64,000 nt of DNA from Novakomyces olei (Eukaryota), in NCBI GenBank assembly GCA_016906335.1, contig JADEYG010000001.1, positions 744,001-808,000 of the forward strand. The letters are read 5' to 3'. The notes under the pieces were generated by a model that saw only the letters and a list, made by a program, of their open reading frames with translations, did not search any database and had not been told where the DNA came from. Both the position numbers and the translations under genes were made by a program. Below, one piece after another: positions 6,530-17,104 of this stretch (the stretch's first letter is position 1; every line of letters starts with the position of its first letter).

Positions 6530-7293
6530 ATAGTGGGTAATGCACATTGAGGTTTTATTAAATATTCAAGAAATTGCATTCAGAGCGGAGCTTGAACTGG
6601 ACGGCGAAGGCGAGATTTCTGGTTTTTCTTAGTGTGTGCGCTTTGGAAGGAGAGAGGAATTAACGTGTGTACATATTCTTATGAAGGAGAAGGTTTGAAA
6701 GATATTTGAGGAATAGACGAAAGCGAGGAGTAAATGTAAAAGTGGAAGCAGAGCATAAAAGAGACAAGTCAAAGAGTTTACACAAAACTGAATTATGCCA
6801 AATCATGTCTTTAAAACGGCAAAGCTATTTTCCTAGTGATTGAATATGATAGTGTGCAAACGGACCAATTAGACAATTGGAAATCACCTTAACGGCCTCA
6901 ATGGCCATATAATATCGTCACCATATGGATTGTAAATAAAATATTGATTAGTATCGGTTTTTCTGGCTTACTTGGTCTGTATGATAAGCATAGTAAGTCG
7001 GATTTGGGATGAGTGGCTATTTTAGATCTATATTTGTATCATCAGCCATTATTATTGTTTATACTATTTATACTATTTATACATATATATTTTTTTACTT
7101 TTTTGGTTATTATTACTTTTTATATATTTTGTTTCCTATTTTATTAATATAATATCTGCACAGTTTCTCATACTTTTCCTATTAAATCATAAATTTTCCT
7201 GTAAATAAGTACAGACCTATCAATCCACCGGCAATAAACAACACGTTTGAACTGCCCAATCACACTGAGGATTGTGCTTTGACTGACCTGTCA

Positions 7294-9085
7294 ATGGCGG
7301 TGAGAACGCGTTCAGTCAAAGAGCCGCGCACGCGGAATGCACAGCCCGATCTGACACCGATCCCCGAAACGCCAAGACGATCAAGTCGCGTTCGTAAGCA
7401 GGCAGCACAAAATGCAGTTTCTGCCAACGATTCTACCAATGGAATCGTGAACAGTATCGGTGAGCGAAGCTCACAAAAACCGTTTGTTTTGCCTCCTAAA
7501 TTAGACTCAGTTGAACAAGGCACTTTTGCTTTGCCCAATGGTTCATCGACCAGGGAAGAACCCAAAATGCTGGCGTCTCATGATTCGGCAGAGCGTCCAA
7601 TAACAACCGACGAGTTTGGCGGGCCAATTGGCAATATTGCCATTATTATTTTTTCTCCTACTCTGATTTATTATCTGTGGTACTGCGCTACTTTTAATGA
7701 CGGACAGATATTCCTGCCGTCCTCCTCCCTCTCACTCCAGCAATGGGCTGCTACTATTGCCCAGCATATTGTAGAGCACGCTTTCCCGCACGCCAAAGCC
7801 TGGGCTATTTTTCTGACTTTTGTTGTGTGGCAAGCAGTCATGTATGTGTACATGCCGGGCATTTACGCAAAAGGACTGCCTCTTGGAAATGGAATGCGAT
7901 TGGATTATTATTGCAGTGCTATTTGGAGCTATTACGCTACAATAGCCGTGGAGCTGGCTCTCCATTTCTCCTCCATTTTTAAACTTTACACTATTATCGA
8001 TGAGTTTGGGTCAATTATCTCCGTGTCTATTATTTTCTCTTTTGCCGTTAGTGTCGGCATTTACGCTTGTGGCCGGATTTTCAAGTGCGAGTATAGGCCC
8101 AGTGGCAATGTTATCCACGATTTTTTCATGGGGACCATCTTGAACCCACGAATTGGGAAATGGCTGGACTTGAAAATGTTTGCTGAAGTTCGGTTTCCTT
8201 GGTACGTGCTTAGTACTTTGGCTATTGCCACTGCTCTGAAGCAATATGACGTTTATGGTGAAGTCTCGCCTCAAGTCTATTTCATCGTTCTCGCCACGTT
8301 CTTGTACGCAAATGCCTGTTCTAAGGGCGAAGAGTGTATCATTCCGACGTGGGATATGTATCGTGAGAAATGGGGGTTCATGCTCATCTTTTGGAATTTT
8401 GCCGGTGTCCCTTTCTCTTATTGTCACTCGATCATTTTCTTGGCGTACCATGATCCTGCGACTTACAACTGGCCTTGGTACTATAATGCTGGTTGCCTGA
8501 TTTTGCTGTTGGGTGCTTACTTTGTGTTTGATACTTGCAACAGCCAAAAGAACTGCTTTCGTCAGCAAATGTTTGGTACTTATTCACCACGCAAGGCGTT
8601 TCCGCCACTGCCTTGGCTCGTCGTTAAAAATCCTACTTTTATAAAATGCGCAAATGGTGGAACACTATTAACTAGCGGATGGTGTACGTTATATTCCTAT
8701 GCGAATTCTTTTGTTTTCTTGATTTGTTTTTTTCTATTTAATTTCGTTATTTTGTTGTGTCTTATTAATTTTTCTATTCTCATTGTTTATTTAATTCTAA
8801 CTTTTAGACCGCTACGCTCGTAAAATTCACTACTCTGCAGACCAATTGCAATGTCTTTCTTGGAGTCTCATTACAGGGTTTTCATCACCTATTGCATACT
8901 TTTATCCCGTGTTCTTTTTTGTCATGGTCCTTCACCGTGCATCGCGCGACATCAGCCGCTGCAAGGAAAAGTATGGAAAGGACTGGGACGAGTATTGTCG
9001 CATTTGTCCGTACTTGTTTATTCCGGTAAGCTGAGCTTTTTTGACTTTGCTTCAAACTAACCTTTTTTCACAGTATATATTCTAG
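7294..9085 (+). CDS. ERG4: Delta(24(24(1)))-sterol reductase
   Basis: [59 protein letters not shown]; two 3' introns. Confidence 0.93.
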
Positions 9086-9399
9086 ACGTATGCTAAGCCG
9101 TGTGGCTTGAGTAAAAGAGCAAGAGCAGAAAAAGGGCCTAGACTTTTGTACAGGGATTCTGCGACAATCTACCTTTATAATCAACGGGTCCTGTATTGTT
9201 TAAAAGAAAAAATTTTATTTGTCTCTCATAGAGAAGTTTGGGAGTAGCATGAAAAAGGCTGGGCATGAACAATGGTAGTTTTAATTTTGCACAAAAAGAC
9301 AAACTTATTATTTTCATGCACAGTACATTTCCTGCATATTTTTGTTATCAACATCTATTATAATTCATTACTAAAATCACATGGCACTAGTGCCTCATT

Positions 9400-10276
9400 A
9401 ATTAATTTCGTTTCAGCTTCCGGTTCTTTTTCTTCTTTGCCAATTTTTCAGCCTTGTAAGCATCTAGGAAACTACCACTGGCTTTTAAACGTTTTGTTTT
9501 TTTGCCAACCGAACCTTTGCCCTCGTACTCCTCGTCTTCGCTGGATGAAGAATGCTCGTTCCGTTCTTGAACAACCGGCTTTTCTATTGTAGAACGTATG
9601 CGTTTTTGCAGTGTTGGATTTAGCGATGCGTATGCCTTGTTTGCCGGAAATTTTTGCGACGAGGAGGCTACGTTCCCCAGTCCTGCAGCTTGTATTTTCT
9701 TCAAGCTCGCATCTTCTTCTTGCTCGCCCTCGCTCTCAGATCCCTGTGCAATCCATGAAGAGACGATACTTCTTGTTACGCTCAACGACGCATCAATTTG
9801 TGCAGAGACTTTACAATTAGTTGAAGCTGTCAAAAAAGGCTTTATTCGTACTTTTCTTTGATTCTTCATAGTCGATCCTGGCGGCCATATACGCCGACAA
9901 CCAAGATGAATTATTATGAATTATTATGAATTAAATTATGAATTAAATTATGAATATATTATGAATATATTATTACATTATGTAAAGCGTTTGCGTCGAT
10001 ATAAAAATCACCATTACGTATACTAAATAACCGTTCAGGATGACTTGTAAATAAGAATAGTATAGTGCCCTTATATAATATACTACAATAAAAAGTTTAT
10101 GGTATATAGTAAACGAAAAAATGGTAATATAATAAATTATTGTACACGGCGCGCGCGTTCCCACGTTTTAGTGAAAATCTTAATGCAATTAGCTTACGCA
10201 TTTTAAATAATTGTGGGTTGCTTATGTAATAAATACATTTCAAATTTATAGAGGTCCAAACCTTTACAGCACAGAT
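9400..10276. repeat. Direct segmental duplication, copy 1 (pairs with 12664-13502)
   Basis: Near-identical sequence from AATTAATTTC to CCTTTACAGCACAGAT in both copies. Confidence 0.97.
9402..9869 (-). CDS. Small Lys-rich fungal protein (DUF3245-like), intact copy
   Basis: 155-aa ORF with SIVSSW...GLG...LQKRI and a KKKKNRK tail. The family assignment is from motif memory only. Confidence 0.6.
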   Translation of the reverse strand: MKNQRKVRIKPFLTASTNCKVSAQIDASLSVTRSIVSSWIAQGSESEGEQEEDASLKKIQAAGLGNVASSSQKFPANKAYASLNPTLQKRIRSTIEKPVVQERNEHSSSSEDEEYEGKGSVGKKTKRLKASGSFLDAYKAEKLAKKKKNRKLKRN

Positions 10277-10547
10277 GGCCTTTTATTTATACCCATGATT
10301 TCGTGAGGCAGTTATGCCGCCGGGGCAATGTATTCGGCGTTAGGCGTTACCGCAAAAAATTGCTTAAATCCGCGTTGTGTATTCGCGCCGATTAAAGATG
10401 CGGTCAAATCGTAGTCATACTAGTTTTAACACCAAGCAATTTACGCCGGCTTTAGGGCATTATAAATTAGAACGTTTCGGAGTTAAGAGCTGGCGTCCCC
10501 TAACGCCGCTCGAGAAATACGAAGCTGTGCGCAGTCACGTCTGGCCC

Positions 10548-10950
10548 GCGCTACGTATGACGGGCGAATCAAGAGCCGATCTAGAGCACTCACACCAGCG
10601 GCGACTTATGGCCGGGAGTGAAATGGTGTGCAACGAATATATACTCAGCCACGGGCTCAAGATTGTTCAAGATCTACGACAGCTGGAGAGCATCCACATA
10701 ATCGCGCACTAATAAACTTAGCGTCGGTCCCCATGAATTATTTTCCAGTGAGATTTTGTCAGTGCGCGTATAAGGAAGGGTATCTCGCTCTGCCTTATCG
10801 GCAGATGAAGTCCGAAGACTGCACCCAATCGGGCATATCTTCTTGGTCCTCCAAGGAGCTGCTGCTACATAGGGATTCTCTGGAATAAACACGAGCACCT
10901 TACGGTTGAGCCGATTGGCCGCTGTAACTGTTGACTGGGTCAACTGAGCT
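10548..10950 (-). pseudogene. Diverged, internally deleted duplicate of the SnoaL-like locus
   Basis: 10548-10710 aligns with 11000-11160 (3' flank plus last codons VRDYxxALQLS). 10720-10950 aligns with 11628-11878 (upstream region). The rest of the CDS is missing. Confidence 0.85.
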
Positions 10951-11123
10951 GGCGCTACGTATGACGGGTAAACCAAGGGCCGATTTTAAAGTATGGCCGG
11001 CGCTATGCATGACAGGAACATCAGGGGCCGATCTAAAGCCCTAGCACCAGCGGCGATATACCGCCGGAAGTGAAGTGGTGCAACGGCTTTACACTCAGCT
11101 ACGGGCTCAAGAGAATTCAAGAC

Positions 11124-11510
11124 CTACGACAGCTGGAGCGCGTTCATATAATCGCGCACTCTGTGAATCTTTCCTTCGTGTACTGTGAAAAACCAAACAT
11201 AATCCAAAACTTTTGGCTCACCGCTCGGTACGCTGGTATGGTGGCCCGTTGCCTCAACAATTATTTCGTTGCCAATGGTACGTGCGATCACGGGCTCAAA
11301 CGACCCGAATTTGACAAAAGTGGGAAGTTTCTCCATGTAGCTGCTTATGGCCTGCTTGCCCTCCAACTTCGTGGGCATGCCCTCTGGAGCAAACGGAAAT
11401 TCATGCACCGCATCATCCGCGTATAAATCAACATAGGCAGAGATGTCGTTGGACTGCAAGGCCTTGCGCATCTCCTCAAGCAGAGGTGGGAGTTGCTGAG
11501 AGGTGGACAT
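11124..11510 (-). CDS. SnoaL-like / NTF2-fold (PhzA/B-, YesE-like) protein, intronless
   Basis: DLYADDAVHEFPFAPEGMP.KLEGKQAI..Y...GKI.RVRDYMN matches the SnoaL_2 pattern. TATA-like TATTTAAA ~50 nt upstream. Confidence 0.88.
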   Translation of the reverse strand: MSTSQQLPPLLEEMRKALQSNDISAYVDLYADDAVHEFPFAPEGMPTKLEGKQAISSYMEKLPTFVKFGSFEPVIARTIGNEIIVEATGHHTSVPSGEPKVLDYVWFFTVHEGKIHRVRDYMNALQLS

Positions 11511-12663
11511 TTTGGATAAGTCTGGAAAATCCACAAGCCTATGAGTGCGTTTTCATTTAAATAGTCTAGAGCTCGGTATAATCGGTCGGGCTTCGGCTTT
11601 GAATTCCCCCCGATTCCGAAATATAAGAGCGTCGGTCCCTATGAATTATTTGCCAGAGTGAGATTTTGTGAGAGCGCGCAGGGGTCTCCCTCTGCCTTAT
11701 CGCCGATAAAGCCCGAAGGCTGCCCAGTCGGGAGCAATTTTAAAGTTACGAATAAATATCGTTGGTCTTCCCAAGGGGCTGCGGTTATATAGGGTTTTCC
11801 CTGGACAAAAACGCCTTAGGGTTGTCGGGCAGATTGGCTGCTGCAACTGTTGACCGGGTCGGGTCGATCGACTGAGCTTGCTGGTAGCGCAGCCTCAGTG
11901 GGGCTTCGAACTTGACGATTTTGGCAAAACCAAAATCGACAAGCATCTGCTAGTCAGTTTCCAAGAATTTAGGCTTGACAAAAGAGCAAGTTAGAAGACC
12001 GAGAAGCAACTTTTCTGTTTACATTCTGTCGTCCGGTAGAATTAGCATTAGCGAGCTGAACGAGGCACACGTGGACCTCGTTGCAAAAGCTTTTCGCGAG
12101 ATCACCGCAGAAGATTAGGTGGATTCTCTTAATATATCCCAGTTCTAGCTATTGGGGCCTCTGTTTCGCATTTTCAATAGATATGCTATCTGACGTCATT
12201 TCATTGTATGCCGCGATAATTATCTCGAAAATATGGACACAGGTGCTAGAGCCCAATTCCTAACAAAACTCGGCCTCAGTCTCTATTTGCGCTGTCTTTG
12301 CGCGACATTCACCTTTTTGACGGCTCCATAATGTACCGCTCCTGGCATGCAGCCGCAATTACCCTGCTTCAGGCCACTTCTCGTTCCGCGTTATGACCAA
12401 TCTATGTTTCGTGCACACGTCACCTCGGCCCTACCCATCTCAAACTCCTAGTACTTGGTAGACACGTAATTCTAATAGCGATCCTCTCCATTGTCACTAC
12501 GGTCGTCCAAAATATGAATATCCGCTATAAATCATGGACTTTGCCACCTTTATACGCTCATCAAGGTCCTCTTCCGACAGTCCGAGCACTTCATTATCGA
12601 GCCTGTCGTCATATCTCGAATCCCCATTGGGAAAGAACACACGGCTATACATTCCCTGAACAA

Positions 12664-13502
12664 AATTAATTTCATTTCAGTTTACGGTTCTTTTTCTTCT
12701 TTGCCAATTTTTCAGCCTTGTAAGCATCTAGGAAACTACCACTGGCTTTTAAACGTTTTGCCTTTTTGCCAACCGAACCTTTGCCCTCGTACTCCTCGTC
12801 TTCGCTGGATGAAGAATGCTCGTTCCGTTCTTGAACAACCGGCTTTTCTATTGTAGAACGTATGCGTTTTTGCAGTGTTGGATTTAGCGATGCGTATGCC
12901 TTGTTTGCCGGATATTTGCTCGCCCTCGCTGTCAGATCCCTGTGCAATCCATGAAGAGACGATACTTCTTGTTACGCTCAACGACGCATCAATTTGTGCA
13001 GAGACTTTACAATTAGTTGAAGCTGTCAAAAAAGGCTTTATTCGTACTTTTCTTTGATTCTTCATAGTCGATCCTGGCGGCCATATACGCCGACAACCAA
13101 GATGAATTATTATGAATTATTATGAATTAAATTATGAATTAAATTATGAATATATTATGAATATATTATGAATATATTATGAATATATTATTACATTATG
13201 TAAGGCGTTTGCGTCGATATAAAAATCACCATTACGTATACCAAATAACCGTTCAGGATGACTTGTAAATAAGAATAGTATAGTGCCCTTATATAATATA
13301 CTACAATAAAAAGTTTACGGTATATAGTAAACGAAAAAATGGTAATATAATAAATTATTGTACACGGCGCGCGCGTTCCCGCGTTTTAGTGAAAATCTTA
13401 GTGCAATTAGTTTACGCATTTTTACTTTGAAATAATTCTGGGTTGCTTAATGTAATAAATACATTTCAAATTTATAGAGGTCCAAACCTTTACAGCACAG
13501 AT
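12664..13502. repeat. Direct segmental duplication, copy 2
   Basis: Matches 9400-10276 apart from substitutions, small indels, the 68-bp deletion and extra GAATATATTAT units. Confidence 0.97.
12672..13065 (-). pseudogene. Frameshifted second copy of the 9402-9869 gene
   Basis: A 68-bp deletion (equivalent to 9653-9720) splits the ORF into two frames. The stop also comes two codons earlier than in copy 1. Confidence 0.9.
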
Positions 13503-13537
13503 CCTTTCTTCGCGCGGATCCTTTCTACGCGCGCGCT

Positions 13538-16500
13538 ATGAGTCAGGAGGCGGTGATCGATAAAGACGCCTTTTACCGGCGCACGAAACTATTTCAAGAT
13601 GCGCTCAAGGTGTGAAATTTGAAACTGCCGTAACCTCCTCTGACTTTTTTAGGGCGAAAGCCAACGCGACTCTGAACGCGTACTCGCCGGTGTGGACGGA
13701 GTGCTGGTGATTATCGACCAGTCTAATGAAGAAAATCCGTATACCAAATCAGCCGCGTTGCATGTAAGCATCTATTTGGTTATGTTTCGATATTTTGACA
13801 CCCGTAGAATTGGTTCCTAGGCTACGAGTTCCCGCGTACAATAATGTACGTGTCGAAGGACAAGGTTTGCTTCCTCAGCAGCCCGAAAAAGAGTATGTGT
13901 CTCTATAGAAAAGATCGATTTGGAGTGTCACTAACTTTTCCAAAGTTGCCGTGCTTGAAGCACTGAAAAACGGGCCTGTTGACATTGAACTTTATACCCG
14001 TACAAAAGACGCGGACCACAATGATCAACAGTACGAAAGTTTACTGCAGGTTATTGCTGGCCAAGGTGTAGGTGTTGCATGGGGTTTTATTGCTTGTGTT
14101 TTGAGATCATCTTTGCTCTACTCTTTCGGCGTTTGTTTGATTCTTGTTGCGCATGGAATCATAGGACTATATACTGTTTTAGGCCAAGTTTCCGTTTGAC
14201 TTTGTTGGCTTTTCCGTGTTTTATAAATTTATTAATGCGCTTTTATGTATTTTTGATGTTTTCTCCTAAATTCTTTAGCTCTCGCTCTATCTGTTTATTT
14301 TTTAATTGCCCTCTTATCCTTATGGAGTCTAACTGATCAGAAACGTGTTGGTATATTTCCAAAAGATCAGGCGGTGGGTGCCATGTATGAGGAATGGAAG
14401 CCGCTGTACGAAAAGAAAGGATTCGAAGAGTCCGACGTCGGTCTCGGCGTAGCTGCACTTTTTGCTGTAAAAGACGAAGAAGAAGATAAGTGTGTGCGAC
14501 AGGCGGCCAAGGCGACTTCCTTTATGCTCACGAAGCCCTTTGTCAATGAAATGTCTCGTATTATTGACGATGGCAAGCGAGTCACTCATGCTTCCCTGTC
14601 AGAGACGATTGAGAGCAAACTGGAATCCCCCAATATCTTCTCTTCAAAATCGTTTAAGCCTGAGCCAGGTTTCGATTCTTCTGTACTGGATTGGTGCTAC
14701 ACACCTATTGTACAAAGCGGTGGAGTATACGATCTCAAACCTTCAGCTGCCTCTGATGAACGAAATTTACACAATGGTGTAATTGTAGCTGAATTGGGTC
14801 TTCGCTACAAATCATACTGTTCAAATATAGGCCGAACGTACCTGATTGACCCAAATTCGCACCAGGAGAAAACGTACGAGTTTCTGCTTTCGTTGCAAAA
14901 GAAAGTCGTCGAGTCGATGACTGATGGTGCAATTATCAGTGATATTTACAGTGGAGCATTGGGACAAATTCGTGCTAAAAAGCCCGAGTTGGAAGGCAAT
15001 TTTGTAAAAAATATCGGTTCAGCAATCGGCATCGAGTTTCGTGAAACGAGTCTTAACTTGAATGCCAAAAATGCGCGTAGCTTAAAGGCCGGCATGACTT
15101 TTACTTTGAGCCTCGGGTTTCAGGGAATCACGAACGCAAAGCCGCAAGACGCAAAGAGCAAAACGTACAGTTTGCTTCTAATTGACACTGTGGAAATCAG
15201 GAAAGACGGACCTGCCGCGCTTCTCACAGACTCTCCAAAGCAGCTCGGAGAGATTTCGTTCTGGTTCAACGAGGATGAGGAGGAAGAAGAGGAAGACGAT
15301 GAAGTAGAGGACTTCAAGGACACTAGCCGAAGGGCCAGTGGCCGGGCAGATCGTTCAGCGTCTGTAATAACAACGGGAAAACGTACAAGAAACGCGGAGA
15401 AAAAAGTAGATGAGTCGTCAGAGCAGCGAAGACGTGAGCACCAAAACGAGCTTGCAGCCAAAGTGCAGGAGGAAGGTATGAAAAGGTTTGAGAATGGTTC
15501 AACAGTCAGTAAAAGTGCGGAGACTCCAGTGTTCAAAAAGTACGAGTCTTATCGCCGGGAGACGCAGCTGCCCTCTGCGATTGCAGAGCTGCAAATCCTG
15601 ATTGATAACAAGGCCCAGTCGGTCATATTACCGATTGAGGGTCGCCCAGTTCCCTTCCACATTTCAACGCTAAAAAACGTGAGCAAAAACGATGAGGGTG
15701 ATTTTGTATTTTTACGATTTAATTTCGTATCGCCCGGTCAAGGGGTTGTCAAAAAAGACGAGCAGCTGTTTGATGATCCTAACGCCTCGTTTATCCGCAG
15801 TCTTACGTACAGAAGCCCCGATGTCGGCAGGGCGTCACACATATTCAGCGCCATTCAAGAGATGAAAAAGCTGGCTACAAAACGCGAAGCAGAGCGCAGA
15901 GAAATGGCGGATATTGTTGAGCAAGATAATCTGACCGAGATCAAAAACAGAAGGCCGCTAACCCTGACTGATGTCTATGCTAGGCCTGGCCTTGACGGGA
16001 AGCGGGTACCCGGCCAATTAGAAATCCATCAGAATGGTGTCCGTTACCAATCGCCATTGCGCTCAGACCACAGGATCGATATCCTGTTTAGCAATATGCG
16101 TCACCTGTTTTATCAGCCCTGTGATCATGAGCTAATTGTCATTATTCATATACATCTAAAGACACCCATACTTGTGGGCAAACGTAAAACTTACGATGTC
16201 CAAGTGTACAGGGAGGCCTCGGATGTGCAGTATGATGAGACGGGCAACAGAAAGCGTAAATACAGGTACGGAGACGAAGATGAATTGGAACAAGAACAGG
16301 AAGAGCGGAGACGCAGAGCGCAGCTAAACAAAGAGTTTCGTAATTTTAGTGAGAAAATTGCTGAAGCTTCTGATGGCAAAGTTGATGTGGATATTCCGTT
16401 TCGTGAATTGGCGTTTTCTGGAGTTCCTTTCCGTGGAAACGTATTGCTCCAGCCGACCACAGAGTGCCTTGTCCAGCTTGTCGATCCGCCTTTCACTGTA

Positions 16501-17104
16501 ATCACACTGGGCGAAGTTGAAATAGCTCATCTGGAACGTGTGCAGTTTGGTTTGAAAAACTTTGATCTCGTCTTTATCCTCAAGGATTACAAAAAGCCTC
16601 CCATTCACGTAAATACTATCCCGGTTCAGCAGCTGGAAAGTGTCAAAGATTGGCTGGATTCTGTGGATATTCCCTTCTCTGAGGGCCCCTTGAACTTGAA
16701 CTGGACTCTTATTATGAAGACAGTGAATGAAGATCCCGCCGAGTTTTTCCGTGGTGGAGGCTGGGAGTTTCTGTCCAGTAACTCTGAGCAGAATAGTGAA
16801 GACAGTGAAGAGGCAGAGAGCGAGTTTGAGGCAAGTGGCAGCGATTTTGCCGATGAAAGCAGTGATGACGACGGGAGCGCTTTTGATGAAGGCGCTAGTG
16901 ACGATTCTGGGTCCGGGTTCGACGAGGATGAAGAGTCTGGTGAAGATTGGGACGAATTGGAGGCAAAGGCGAAGAAGGGTAAGTTAATTCACTCTAGAAG
17001 AATACAAGGAACATTAAAAGGGTTCAAGGTTCGTATTTGCTAACATTTGTATAGCTGATTCTCGACAAGCGGATGAAGATCGGCCAAAGAAGCGTCGGAA
17101 GTAG
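13538..17104 (+). CDS. SPT16: FACT complex subunit Spt16
   Basis: [49 protein letters not shown], acidic tail ending WDELE; several 5' introns and one 3' intron. Confidence 0.98.

Follow-up and report, generated by a model that had tools for sequence, protein, structure and literature searches.

Junctional insertions are known to occur in tandem duplications, and the integration of yeast integrative plasmids is reversible by pop-out. In yeast, end joining has been documented to capture linear fragments where double-strand breaks occur (Haviv-Chesner et al. 2007, PMC1976456). According to the available part of another report, region B, a 17-kb segment from Zygosaccharomyces bailii found in wine Saccharomyces cerevisiae, is clearly foreign and multi-copy, and occupies several sites, which it entered by non-homologous recombination with little similarity at the breakpoints; a circular intermediate with an origin has been proposed (Galeote et al. 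2011, PMC3053389). Non-homologous insertions were also described in S. pombe, in a text whose available part does not contain the word 'duplication' (PMC3418178). In a limited search of the literature on insertions at yeast breaks we met no natural fungal case with kilobase-sized flanking duplications, and such a case may already be published.

Here we describe a stretch of 64,000 nucleotides (hereafter the window) from Novakomyces olei (assembly GCA_016906335.1, contig JADEYG010000001.1, positions 744,001 to 808,000), in which a unit consisting of a small gene and a bidirectional promoter occurs twice, head to tail, with extra DNA exactly at the junction between the copies. The locus and its neighbours are composed as follows:

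7294..8823, plus strand: ERG4, sterol C-24(28) reductase ORF, left neighbour (Pfam ERG4_ERG24, 2.3e-104)
9400..10276, no strand: repeat copy A, 877 bp, with the intact small gene and the AT-rich bidirectional promoter
9402..9869, minus strand: small gene of copy A, an intact 155-aa ORF rich in Lys, Glu and Ser
10277..12663, no strand: insert, 2387 bp, GC 0.49, with intact coding sequence in only 16%
12664..13502, no strand: repeat copy B, 839 bp, with the broken small gene and the promoter now serving SPT16
12736..13065, minus strand: small gene of copy B, a pseudogene with a 109-aa ORF and an altered C-terminus
13538..17043, plus strand: SPT16, FACT subunit, right neighbour, with five SPT16 Pfam domains and several short 5' introns

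The first-pass annotation had placed two near-identical copies at 9400-10276 and 12664-13502. The repeat search, MAFFT and blastn all agreed with these coordinates exactly, and the size of about 0.85 kb given there was refined to the two values above, the small gene proving to be broken in copy B. The copies have four collinear direct-repeat blocks in common: 9400-9653/12664-12917 (98%), 9720-9973/12916-13169 (100%), 9944-10204/13162-13422 (97%) and 10224-10276/13450-13502 (100%). Their MAFFT alignment has 14 mismatches among 809 aligned positions (98.3% identical; JC distance 0.0175) and four indels, copy B being without 68 bp and having an additional 22, 7 and 1 bp; a blastn comparison of copy A with the window gave scores of 902 bits (E 0.0) and 432 bits (E 4e-123), far beyond chance. 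The mismatches are spread unevenly along the unit (6/252, 1/253 and 7/303), with a near-identical central tract, which fits gene conversion and does not discriminate between the models of origin. Both copies are complete, co-oriented and have the same end points, the left one lying 2 bp past the stop codon of the small gene and the right one 35 bp before the ATG at 13538. The unit consists, as annotated, of one small gene and the divergent SPT16 promoter. The DNA at 10277-12663 fills the gap precisely and, in keeping with its description as unrelated to the repeats, matches only itself in the window, internal repeats apart. At its junction with copy A a 2-bp GG is followed by a shared CCTTT, an uninformative pattern as regards microhomology.

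The most fitting reading of this architecture is a derived insertion whose target became duplicated. Repeats of 877 and 839 bp are, as the first-pass annotation had remarked, far too long for the target-site duplication of a transposon. Of the processes suggested there, integration of a circle and repair with capture of DNA both stay leading candidates. We tentatively prefer the latter, namely a single repair event giving rise to a tandem duplication with captured filler DNA at its junction, and give this account a little less than an even chance of being correct. The alternative, a Campbell-type integration, would involve a circle of one 0.88-kb unit and the 2.4-kb fragment that entered by a single crossover with the chromosomal unit; we regard it as rather unlikely, yet worth serious consideration. 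Its expected outcome is exactly what is seen, namely two complete copies in one orientation that share their end points and enclose unrelated DNA, and the central tract with 1 mismatch in 253 may reflect gene conversion where the crossover took place. AT-rich intergenic DNA serves as replication origin in fission yeast, and the unit's AT-rich promoter might have had this role on the circle. In wine yeast a transferred segment is documented to have spread by way of a circle; however, that segment was inserted non-homologously and, in the part of the source available, without long duplications (PMC3053389). Integration of a circle also needs more steps, since a copy of the unit must be excised, ligated to the fragment and then integrated, and laboratory vector sequence is absent, the sole plasmid match being the 45 bp within the SnoaL gene discussed below.

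The small gene is the sole ORF noted in the repeat unit. In copy B, the 68-bp deletion shifts the frame after approximately 45 residues, and the former last arginine codon is now a stop. The protein may be DUF3245/NOP19-like, which as a reading of sequence is a lead only: its Atlas feature score to DUF3245 clusters was 0.95 with recognition below threshold, Pfam (PF11595 and PF10863 included) gave no match even at E up to 10, and among 59 word-sharing candidates from a database of 5.8 billion proteins there was no significant homologue. The promoter part of the unit is 407 bp long, the divergent promoter being 442 bp when measured up to the SPT16 ATG. Copy B as a retrocopy of the small gene was rejected, as the unit includes these 407 bp of promoter and there is no poly(A) tract.

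The outer junctions both have a native appearance: AT-rich DNA (GC 0.34), like a terminator shared with ERG4, flanks copy A on the left, and the right side gives the divergent promoter. The ATG at 13538 begins a run of short exons matching the SPT16 N-lobes of Saitoella, S. pombe and Pneumocystis, with N-lobe exons located at 13656-14076 and from 14338 on; the closest SPT16 matches (57-61% identity) are from Taphrinomycotina, and the host is an early-diverging ascomycete with a compact interval of ERG4, small gene and SPT16. In Pneumocystis oryctolagi, gene model P0174 has ERG4 residues 1-331 fused to SPT16 from residue 336. The window's ERG4 ORF, the tail of which probably runs into an unspliced intron, is 43% identical to the ERG4 part of P0174 over 350 aligned positions (BLASTP), and 48.6% over 292 in a tblastn piece. 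In Pneumocystis, too, ERG4 and SPT16 thus lie near each other in the same orientation, and a compact interval is probably ancestral, as far as a single fused model in a very distantly related fungus can indicate. When metagenomes were scanned with SPT16, 37 loci were recovered (35-67% identity), and in none of them did tblastn (E 1e-3 or better) find a match to ERG4, to SnoaL, to the small protein or to SPT16 exon 1.

These flanks bear on the possibility that the 2.4-kb segment is old resident DNA and that only the 0.88-kb unit moved, by ectopic repair, to its other side. Such a history would agree with an insert that is host-like in signature and codon usage, single in the window and at flank-level depth in one run, and whose internal duplication (69-80% identity) is far older than the flanking one (98.3%). 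However, either version of it makes one of the native-looking outer junctions new. If copy A were new, the original 3' flank of the small gene would have been the GC-rich insert and not the AT-rich, terminator-like 9272-9399; with copy B as the newcomer, SPT16 would have started out without its AT-rich promoter. In addition, ERG4 and SPT16 are near enough in Pneumocystis to be joined in one gene model, and some 2 kb of resident non-coding DNA would be expected to drift to the local intergenic GC of 26-36%, whereas the insert stays at 0.49. We consider this history improbable.

The insert had been called foreign-looking, and this part of the earlier description is not supported. Its GC excess exists only in relation to the adjoining AT-rich promoter and terminator DNA. 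In dinucleotide signature it lies nearer the host average (delta* 0.041) than most host windows do, the host mean being 0.065 and 167 of 190 windows deviating further; none of 38 windows from bacterial loci (minimum 0.087) and none of 94 from other fungal-like contigs (minimum 0.057) came so near. A recent foreign origin is thus unsupported, since dinucleotide signature, GC3 and codon usage are those of the host.

We found no terminal inverted or long terminal repeats in the insert. Pfam searches of 20 of its 49 stop-to-stop ORFs gave no transposase, integrase, reverse transcriptase or marker domain, and just two matches attributable to chance and well short of their cut-offs, to SinI (E 0.038) and to CaMBD (E 0.034). 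The 55-aa ORF at the right end had no usable match in the Atlas search, no RNA family was detected at 8500-14500 (Rfam, E up to 0.1), and the window contains no tRNA genes. A blastn search against 72,556 plasmids gave one match, of 45 bp. A transposon was consequently rejected, given repeats of 839-877 bp without terminal repeats and without a transposase domain in the 20 of 49 ORFs scanned, and so was a laboratory integrative vector, given the lack of plasmid backbone among these plasmids and of a marker domain in the same ORFs. Helitron-like capture was considered as well; the expected end sequences are absent at either possible element boundary.

The only recognisable gene in the insert is accompanied by the remains of an older tandem unit:

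11124..11510, minus strand: SnoaL_2 / NTF2-like gene, intact, 128 aa (Pfam PF12680)
11628..11860, minus strand: upstream element of the intact SnoaL unit (repeat search, blastn)
10539..10941, minus strand: decayed tandem unit, a second SnoaL unit with the gene body missing

The predicted SnoaL_2 protein matches PF12680 with 55.7 bits (cut-off 27), residues 12-117 covering profile positions 2-101 of 102. It aligns over its full length with bacterial homologues (41-51% identity; same start and end, no intron) and shares with bacterial members a conserved YA.DAVHEFPFAPEG block; the nearest solved structure is 1s5a (YesE), and another solved relative is 1z1s (PA3332), both described as 'hypothetical'. 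All 8 organism-named nearest clusters are bacterial, at no more than 51% identity; the remaining 24 of the 32 inspected have no organism assigned to them. As the protein databases omit unannotated fungal genomes, the window's own proteins included, fungal homologues may have been missed. The GC3 of the gene is 0.605 (host 0.38-0.64; five bacterial homologues 0.84-0.98) and its CAI-like value 0.819 (host 0.78-0.84). In the decayed unit, 10539-10710 represents the 3' end and downstream element and is approximately 80% identical to 10991-11160, and 10720-10941 represents the upstream element and is approximately 69% identical to 11628-11860; of the C-terminus the remnant VRDYVDALQLS is left.

We therefore also considered a recent horizontal transfer, in which the 2.4 kb would have been taken straight from a bacterium shortly before the repeats diverged. 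The exclusively bacterial named relatives (8 of 8), the bacterial start and end of the intronless ORF, and a 45-bp stretch with 87% identity to an NTF2 gene on a Gluconobacter plasmid speak in its favour. Against this, the best protein identity is just 51%; a tblastx comparison with 14 bacterial loci carrying SnoaL relatives matched the SnoaL ORF only and no bacterial flank DNA, and the remainder of the insert belongs to no Pfam family in the 20 of 49 ORFs scanned. With 16% of its length in intact coding sequence, a tandem unit decayed to 69-80% identity, host-like signature, GC3 and codon usage, and an AAAATG start context with no Shine-Dalgarno sequence, the insert makes a recent transfer very unlikely. 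That the identifiable SnoaL relatives are only bacterial points instead to a gene acquired from bacteria long ago and by now domesticated in this lineage.

The structure was examined in public Logan contigs from three sequencing runs, one isolate-sized (X1) and two from other studies (X2 and X3); a further run (X4), as well as the flanks in X3, was essentially without cover, and nothing was concluded from them. In X1, k-mer depth, which is not a formal copy number, was 1132-1205 in the flanks, 1064-1134 in the insert, 1129 in the copy-A-only segment 9619-9765, and 2291 and 2580 in the contigs common to both copies. The repeat is thus present at about twice the depth of the flanks, and the insert and the A-only segment are close to them (insert/flank ratio 0.88-1.00), which supports the structure; in X2, insert (2.1-5.8) and flank (2.8-6.4) depths overlap. 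The insert has no second copy in the window, and genome-wide its copy number rests on the depth in one run. Contig breaks fall exactly on differences between the copies (9420/21, 9648/49 and 9735+30). The junction of left flank and copy A is bridged in X1 (contig 7000-9450) and X2, and that of insert and copy B by an X1 contig (10755-12714, reaching 51 nt into B) and by an X3 contig from the second study (12584-12739, with 80 and 76 nt on either side). X1 and X2 contigs begin 30 nt before the copy-A/insert junction; here and at the copy-B/SPT16 junction the contigs include only 30 nt on the repeat side, one under the 31-nt rule for bridging. No alternative joint was reported among the contigs. 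Templated copying from a retained donor is disfavoured, the 1960-bp X1 contig 10755-12714 being unbroken and at the depth of the flanks.

The same data bear on an assembly artefact or episome, in which the chromosome would hold one unit and the second copy and insert would represent a haplotype mis-join or a free 3.3-kb circle. No contig covers the whole stretch, Logan contigs being unable to span both copies, and one circle per chromosome would give the same 31-mers and depths; nor do the contigs offer circle-specific evidence, because both inner junctions would look alike whether the circle is free or integrated. A mis-join, however, predicts repeats at flank depth and an A-only segment at half of it, in contrast to the 2291/2580 and 1129 seen against 1132-1205, and for an episome the agreement of insert and flank depths in X1, and their overlap in X2, would be a coincidence. 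Chimeric bacterial contamination is excluded by equal depth and host-like composition. We judge an artefact or episome to be a slim prospect and regard the duplication-insertion as real and apparently fixed.

Under the preferred reading, a tandem duplication with junctional insertion, events would have started with one aberrant break or replication-repair event, in which the 0.88-kb unit of small gene and bidirectional promoter was re-copied head to tail and the junction of the copies was closed by end joining, taking in the 2.4-kb fragment as filler. Copy A would thereby have retained the small gene, its native AT-rich terminator and the full promoter, and copy B the promoter directly upstream of the essential SPT16; the insertion would have been tolerable because the duplication leaves each neighbour gene its control DNA. 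Afterwards the redundant small gene of copy B would have decayed through the 68-bp deletion and the premature stop. Host signature and codon usage suggest that the captured DNA originated in this genome lineage or in one closely related to it; a near-identical donor copy would no longer remain, and the fragment would have brought along the much older decayed tandem unit. Structure, junctions, relative depths, composition and homologies are shown by the data, whereas a single event as mechanism, a compact ancestral interval and an old bacterial source of the gene are inferred from them. Beyond this, one may imagine a natural 'integrative plasmid', a self-replicating circle carrying a host promoter/origin module and a domesticated bacterial-type NTF2 gene and recombining reversibly, by homology, at its own site. 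This is a long shot; if true, an early-diverging ascomycete would possess in this locus a gene cassette that is both reversible and amplifiable, along with a route by which old transferred genes move within or between related genomes.

The value of the locus is mainly that of a well-documented structural variant and of a caution, namely that a GC contrast with adjoining promoter DNA is not evidence of foreign origin. It offers a clean natural example of DNA inserted in a promoter region that is both compact and essential, an event that the cell would have survived because the whole gene-plus-promoter module is duplicated around the insert, and the aftermath is visible, one small-gene copy decaying while the other keeps working. 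It also places a bacterial-type NTF2 gene, host-adapted in composition, in the chromosome core of a poorly sampled fungal lineage. As the direct repeats are 98% identical, the cassette is potentially excisable, so that it becomes testable whether selection maintains it.

Compared with known systems, the locus shares with transposon target-site duplications the direct repeats of the target on either side of an inserted segment, but these measure 839-877 bp and not 2-20 bp. Like region B, it is an extra DNA segment in a yeast chromosome; it differs in being one copy at one site, host-like in composition and flanked by 0.85-kb duplications. Its SnoaL_2 protein differs from the bacterial SnoaL_2 / NTF2-like proteins in being encoded on a fungal chromosome with host codon usage, and in its identity of at most 51% to any named one. 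In integrated yeast plasmids, too, the homology segment is repeated directly and in full length on both sides of the remaining circle DNA, whereas vector backbone and marker are absent here and a natural chimeric circle, joining the host's promoter and gene to other DNA, would first have to arise. Fragment capture with tandem duplication has the same head-to-tail copies of a contiguous segment with unrelated DNA at their junction; what sets the present case apart is its natural occurrence, a captured piece of 2.4 kb, a 0.88-kb duplication much longer than usual, and a duplicated unit that forms a complete gene-plus-promoter module.

A repeat search of the window returned four collinear blocks that jointly cover positions 9400–10276 (copy A, 877 bp) and 12664–13502 (copy B, 839 bp), on either side of an insert of 2387 bp (10277–12663). 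These are exactly the coordinates at which the first-pass annotation had placed two near-identical segments, and MAFFT and blastn bear them out. MAFFT aligns 809 positions of the two copies, 14 of them mismatched (98.3% identity, JC distance 0.0175): 1/253 in the central tract versus 6/252 and 7/303 in the other tracts. There are also four indels, copy B lacking 68 bp and having an additional 22, 7 and 1 bp. Their similarity cannot be due to chance, blastn within the window scoring it at 902 and 432 bits. The 22-bp difference lies in a ATTATGAAT-type microsatellite of the bidirectional promoter (9905–9975 and 13100–13195); its k-mers are very deep in X1, an isolate-sized public sequencing run (6754 in bin 12964–13247), so that motifs of this type are evidently present elsewhere in the genome too. 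The features discussed below are as follows.

9402–9869, minus strand: small gene of copy A, intact open reading frame (ORF) of 155 aa
11124–11510, minus strand: SnoaL_2/NTF2-like gene in the insert, intact, 128 aa (Pfam 55.7 bits, cut-off 27)
3′ of short N-lobe exons: SPT16 main ORF, 886 aa

Judging from ORFs and exon matches, the repeated unit comprises a single small gene and the promoter that it shares divergently with SPT16, as had been proposed together with a right end some 35 bp before the ATG. Its left end lies 2 bp past the stop codon of the 155-aa ORF and its right end 35 bp upstream of the ATG at 13538, which starts short exons resembling the SPT16 N-terminal lobe of Saitoella, S. 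pombe and Pneumocystis; the promoter part (407 bp, with the microsatellite inside) is very AT-rich (GC 0.26–0.30). In copy A the small gene is intact and has a native AT-rich flank towards the 3′ end of ERG4. Copy B adjoins SPT16; there the small gene is frameshifted by the 68-bp deletion after approximately 45 residues, and a stop stands in place of its last arginine codon. The 155-aa protein had no Pfam match and no homologue among 5.8 billion proteins, a collection from which the window's own proteins are missing; its possible identity as DUF3245/NOP19 (Atlas score 0.95, recognition below threshold) is only a lead.

Many short introns occur in the genes of the window. The tail of the ERG4 ORF (8400–8823) ceases to align to ERG4 proteins and is probably an unspliced 3′ intron, and at least four short introns, one of about 260 bp, lie in the 5′ part of SPT16 (13612–14382); both cases point to under-calling of genes by ORF lists in this genome. 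A 44-bp stretch in an SPT16 exon (14479–14522) has unrelated sequence on both sides on contigs of X1 and of a further public run, X2, so that a second locus of the same organism must carry it too.

Logan contigs were compared with positions 7000–15500, and three public runs from two studies were found to contain the region. The structure is real. Per-contig k-mer depth in X1, which by the tool's own warning is not a formal copy number, was 1205, 1193 and 1132 for the flanks, 1134 and 1064 for the insert, 1129 for the segment found only in copy A (9619–9765), and 2291 and 2580 for contigs common to both copies. The read-depth check proposed by the first-pass annotation thus gave approximately twice the flank value for the repeat and approximately the flank value for the insert. 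A collapsed-haplotype artefact would give flank-level depth in the repeat and half depth in the A-only segment, neither of which was observed. Contig ends fall precisely at differences between the copies (after 9420, before 9649 and 30 nt past 9735), which, given the behaviour of a 31-mer graph, indicates that both versions are present in the reads. Contigs cross the junction between insert and copy B in X1, reaching 51 nt into copy B, and in X3, a metagenome-sized run of the other study, with 80 and 76 nt either side; that between the left flank and copy A is crossed in X1 and X2. At the copy A/insert and copy B/SPT16 junctions the contigs start 30 nt inside the repeat, 1 nt under the bridging rule, as would be expected of a 31-mer graph where the first word specific to the junction occurs. 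Among the contigs over 7000–15500, no alternative joints were reported. As no contig covers both copies, the second copy and the insert might be carried as a free circle, one per chromosome; this is unlikely, since insert depth is near that of the flanks in X1 and overlaps it in X2 (2.1–5.8 vs 2.8–6.4). Upstream of ERG4, an AT-rich low-complexity stretch (7058–7104) shows four differences from high-depth contigs of X3 and X4, both metagenome-sized, and these matches probably reflect low-complexity sequence of unrelated origin in other organisms.

Core genes of the window include those for a ubiquitin hydrolase, ERG4 (7294–8823, plus strand), SPT16 (13538–17043, plus strand), a sugar transporter, a Zn-cluster factor, an Rrp6-like exonuclease and a MutL homologue, among others. 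The top named matches of SPT16 (Saitoella, 61%; Pneumocystis, 58–60%; Schizosaccharomyces, 59–60%; Neolecta, Protomyces and Taphrina, 57–58%) place the organism, probably, among early-diverging ascomycetes without an annotated close relative. A Pneumocystis oryctolagi gene model, P0174 (1311 aa), has an ERG4 part in residues 1–331 (43% identical to the ERG4 of the window; ERG4_ERG24 domain, 62–331) and, from residue 336, a full SPT16 (58% identical). This fusion probably arose when two neighbouring genes of the same orientation were merged in annotation, which would make the ERG4-then-SPT16 neighbourhood old, compact and common to a very distant relative. The outer junctions look native: the left flank is AT-rich and resembles a terminator, and on the right there is a divergent promoter of 442 bp. 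Taken with the old, compact neighbourhood, this suggests that the insert and the second copy are the derived state; a rival reading, of a resident insert with a moved unit, is disfavoured by the same native outer junctions and by the ERG4–SPT16 adjacency in Pneumocystis. Among 37 metagenome SPT16 loci (identity ≤67%, no close relatives), none had ERG4, the small gene or the SnoaL gene near SPT16.

Over its whole length the SnoaL protein can be aligned with bacterial proteins at 41–51% identity, and it shares with them a conserved block, YA.DAVHEFPFAPEG. An exhaustive profile-free search returned 544 relatives at E ≤0.001 and 68 at E ≤1e-10. Among the 32 nearest clusters inspected, eight were named by organism, all bacterial (Acidimangrovimonas, Thioclava, Nguyenibacter, Tsukamurella, Streptosporangium, Streptomyces and, twice, Nonomuraea), and the remaining 24 were unnamed metagenome or Logan proteins. 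The nearest solved structures, 1s5a (YesE) and 1z1s (PA3332), are uncharacterised bacterial proteins. The start context is AAAATG, without a Shine-Dalgarno sequence. Both the 128-aa and the 155-aa protein are themselves missing from the 5.8-billion-protein collection, yet are encoded on X1 contigs; this genome appears to be unannotated in protein collections, and any argument from the lack of a fungal homologue is thereby weakened.

Beside the SnoaL gene lies a decayed second unit, whose last 11 codons and downstream element are approximately 80%, and upstream element approximately 69%, identical to those of the intact one; the downstream and upstream parts abut directly and the gene body is gone. 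On this sequence comparison, the insert's internal duplication is much older than the flanking one. The insert also contains three copies of a 42-nt sub-repeat (76–79% identity; 10544–10585, 10948–10989 and 10996–11037), the last two next to each other and immediately downstream of the intact SnoaL gene. Beyond matches among these internal repetitions, the insert had no counterpart in the 64-kb window (blastn). No other domain was recognised by Pfam (20 of 49 insert ORFs), nor anything by Atlas in the right-end ORF; Rfam gave no RNA families, the flanks of 14 bacterial SnoaL homologues no other match (tblastx), and plasmids only 45 bp inside the SnoaL gene (blastn). Terminal repeats of the insert were not found.

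The insert is not recently foreign, and the earlier description of it as foreign-looking is not supported: its dinucleotide signature, GC3 and codon usage are host-like. Its GC (0.49) is above that of the adjoining promoter and terminator DNA and within the range of host coding DNA (300-bp windows: median 0.44, 95th percentile 0.54). By dinucleotide relative abundance the insert lies at a distance of 0.041 from the remainder of the window (0.059 without the SnoaL ORF), against a mean of 0.065 for 190 equal-sized host windows, 167 of which deviate more. The test has power, since none of 38 bacterial-locus windows (minimum 0.087) or 94 windows of other fungal-like contigs (minimum 0.057) comes down to 0.041. 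Tetranucleotide correlation is below typical (0.55 vs a mean of 0.77), with 12 of the 190 host windows lower still. GC3 (0.605) and a CAI-like index (0.819) of the SnoaL ORF fall within the ranges of 13 host ORFs (0.38–0.64 and 0.78–0.84); GC3 is 0.84–0.98 in five bacterial homologues. Such composition and codon usage point to DNA from this lineage or a close relative, or long resident there. The bacterial kinship of the SnoaL gene would then reflect an old transfer, or could represent a fungal family hidden in unannotated genomes. A near-identical second copy of the insert is absent in X1, where a 1960-bp contig (10755–12714) runs unbroken at flank depth.

Had DNA simply been inserted here, the promoter common to the essential SPT16 and the small gene would have been divided. 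Since the unit is present on either side of the insert, neither gene has lost a part it needs, which explains viability whatever the route; the redundant copy of the small gene has meanwhile decayed. To be accounted for are two new junctions, each with a complete unit alongside. A single aberrant repair or replication-restart event may have produced a tandem duplication of the 0.88-kb unit, its junction being closed by end joining with capture of a 2.4-kb fragment. We favour repair with capture because one event at one locus suffices. Insertions are known to occur at the junctions of tandem duplications. Direct repeats can mediate pop-out or amplification, and the two copies here might do so. 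The single-copy depth speaks against templated copying from a retained donor. The first-pass annotation had proposed integration of a circle or a repair event capturing foreign DNA; this finds partial support, in that the structure is real and derived and that either of these two known routes may have led to it, but the 'foreign' label is not supported. That yeast can capture linear fragments at breaks is documented (PMC1976456). The main rival, integration by one crossover of a circle of one unit plus the fragment, yields the same architecture and would fit the nearly mismatch-free central tract, but takes more steps. In its wine-yeast precedent (PMC3053389) insertion was non-homologous and without such long repeats. 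The duplication-insertion adds one more case to types of event already known.
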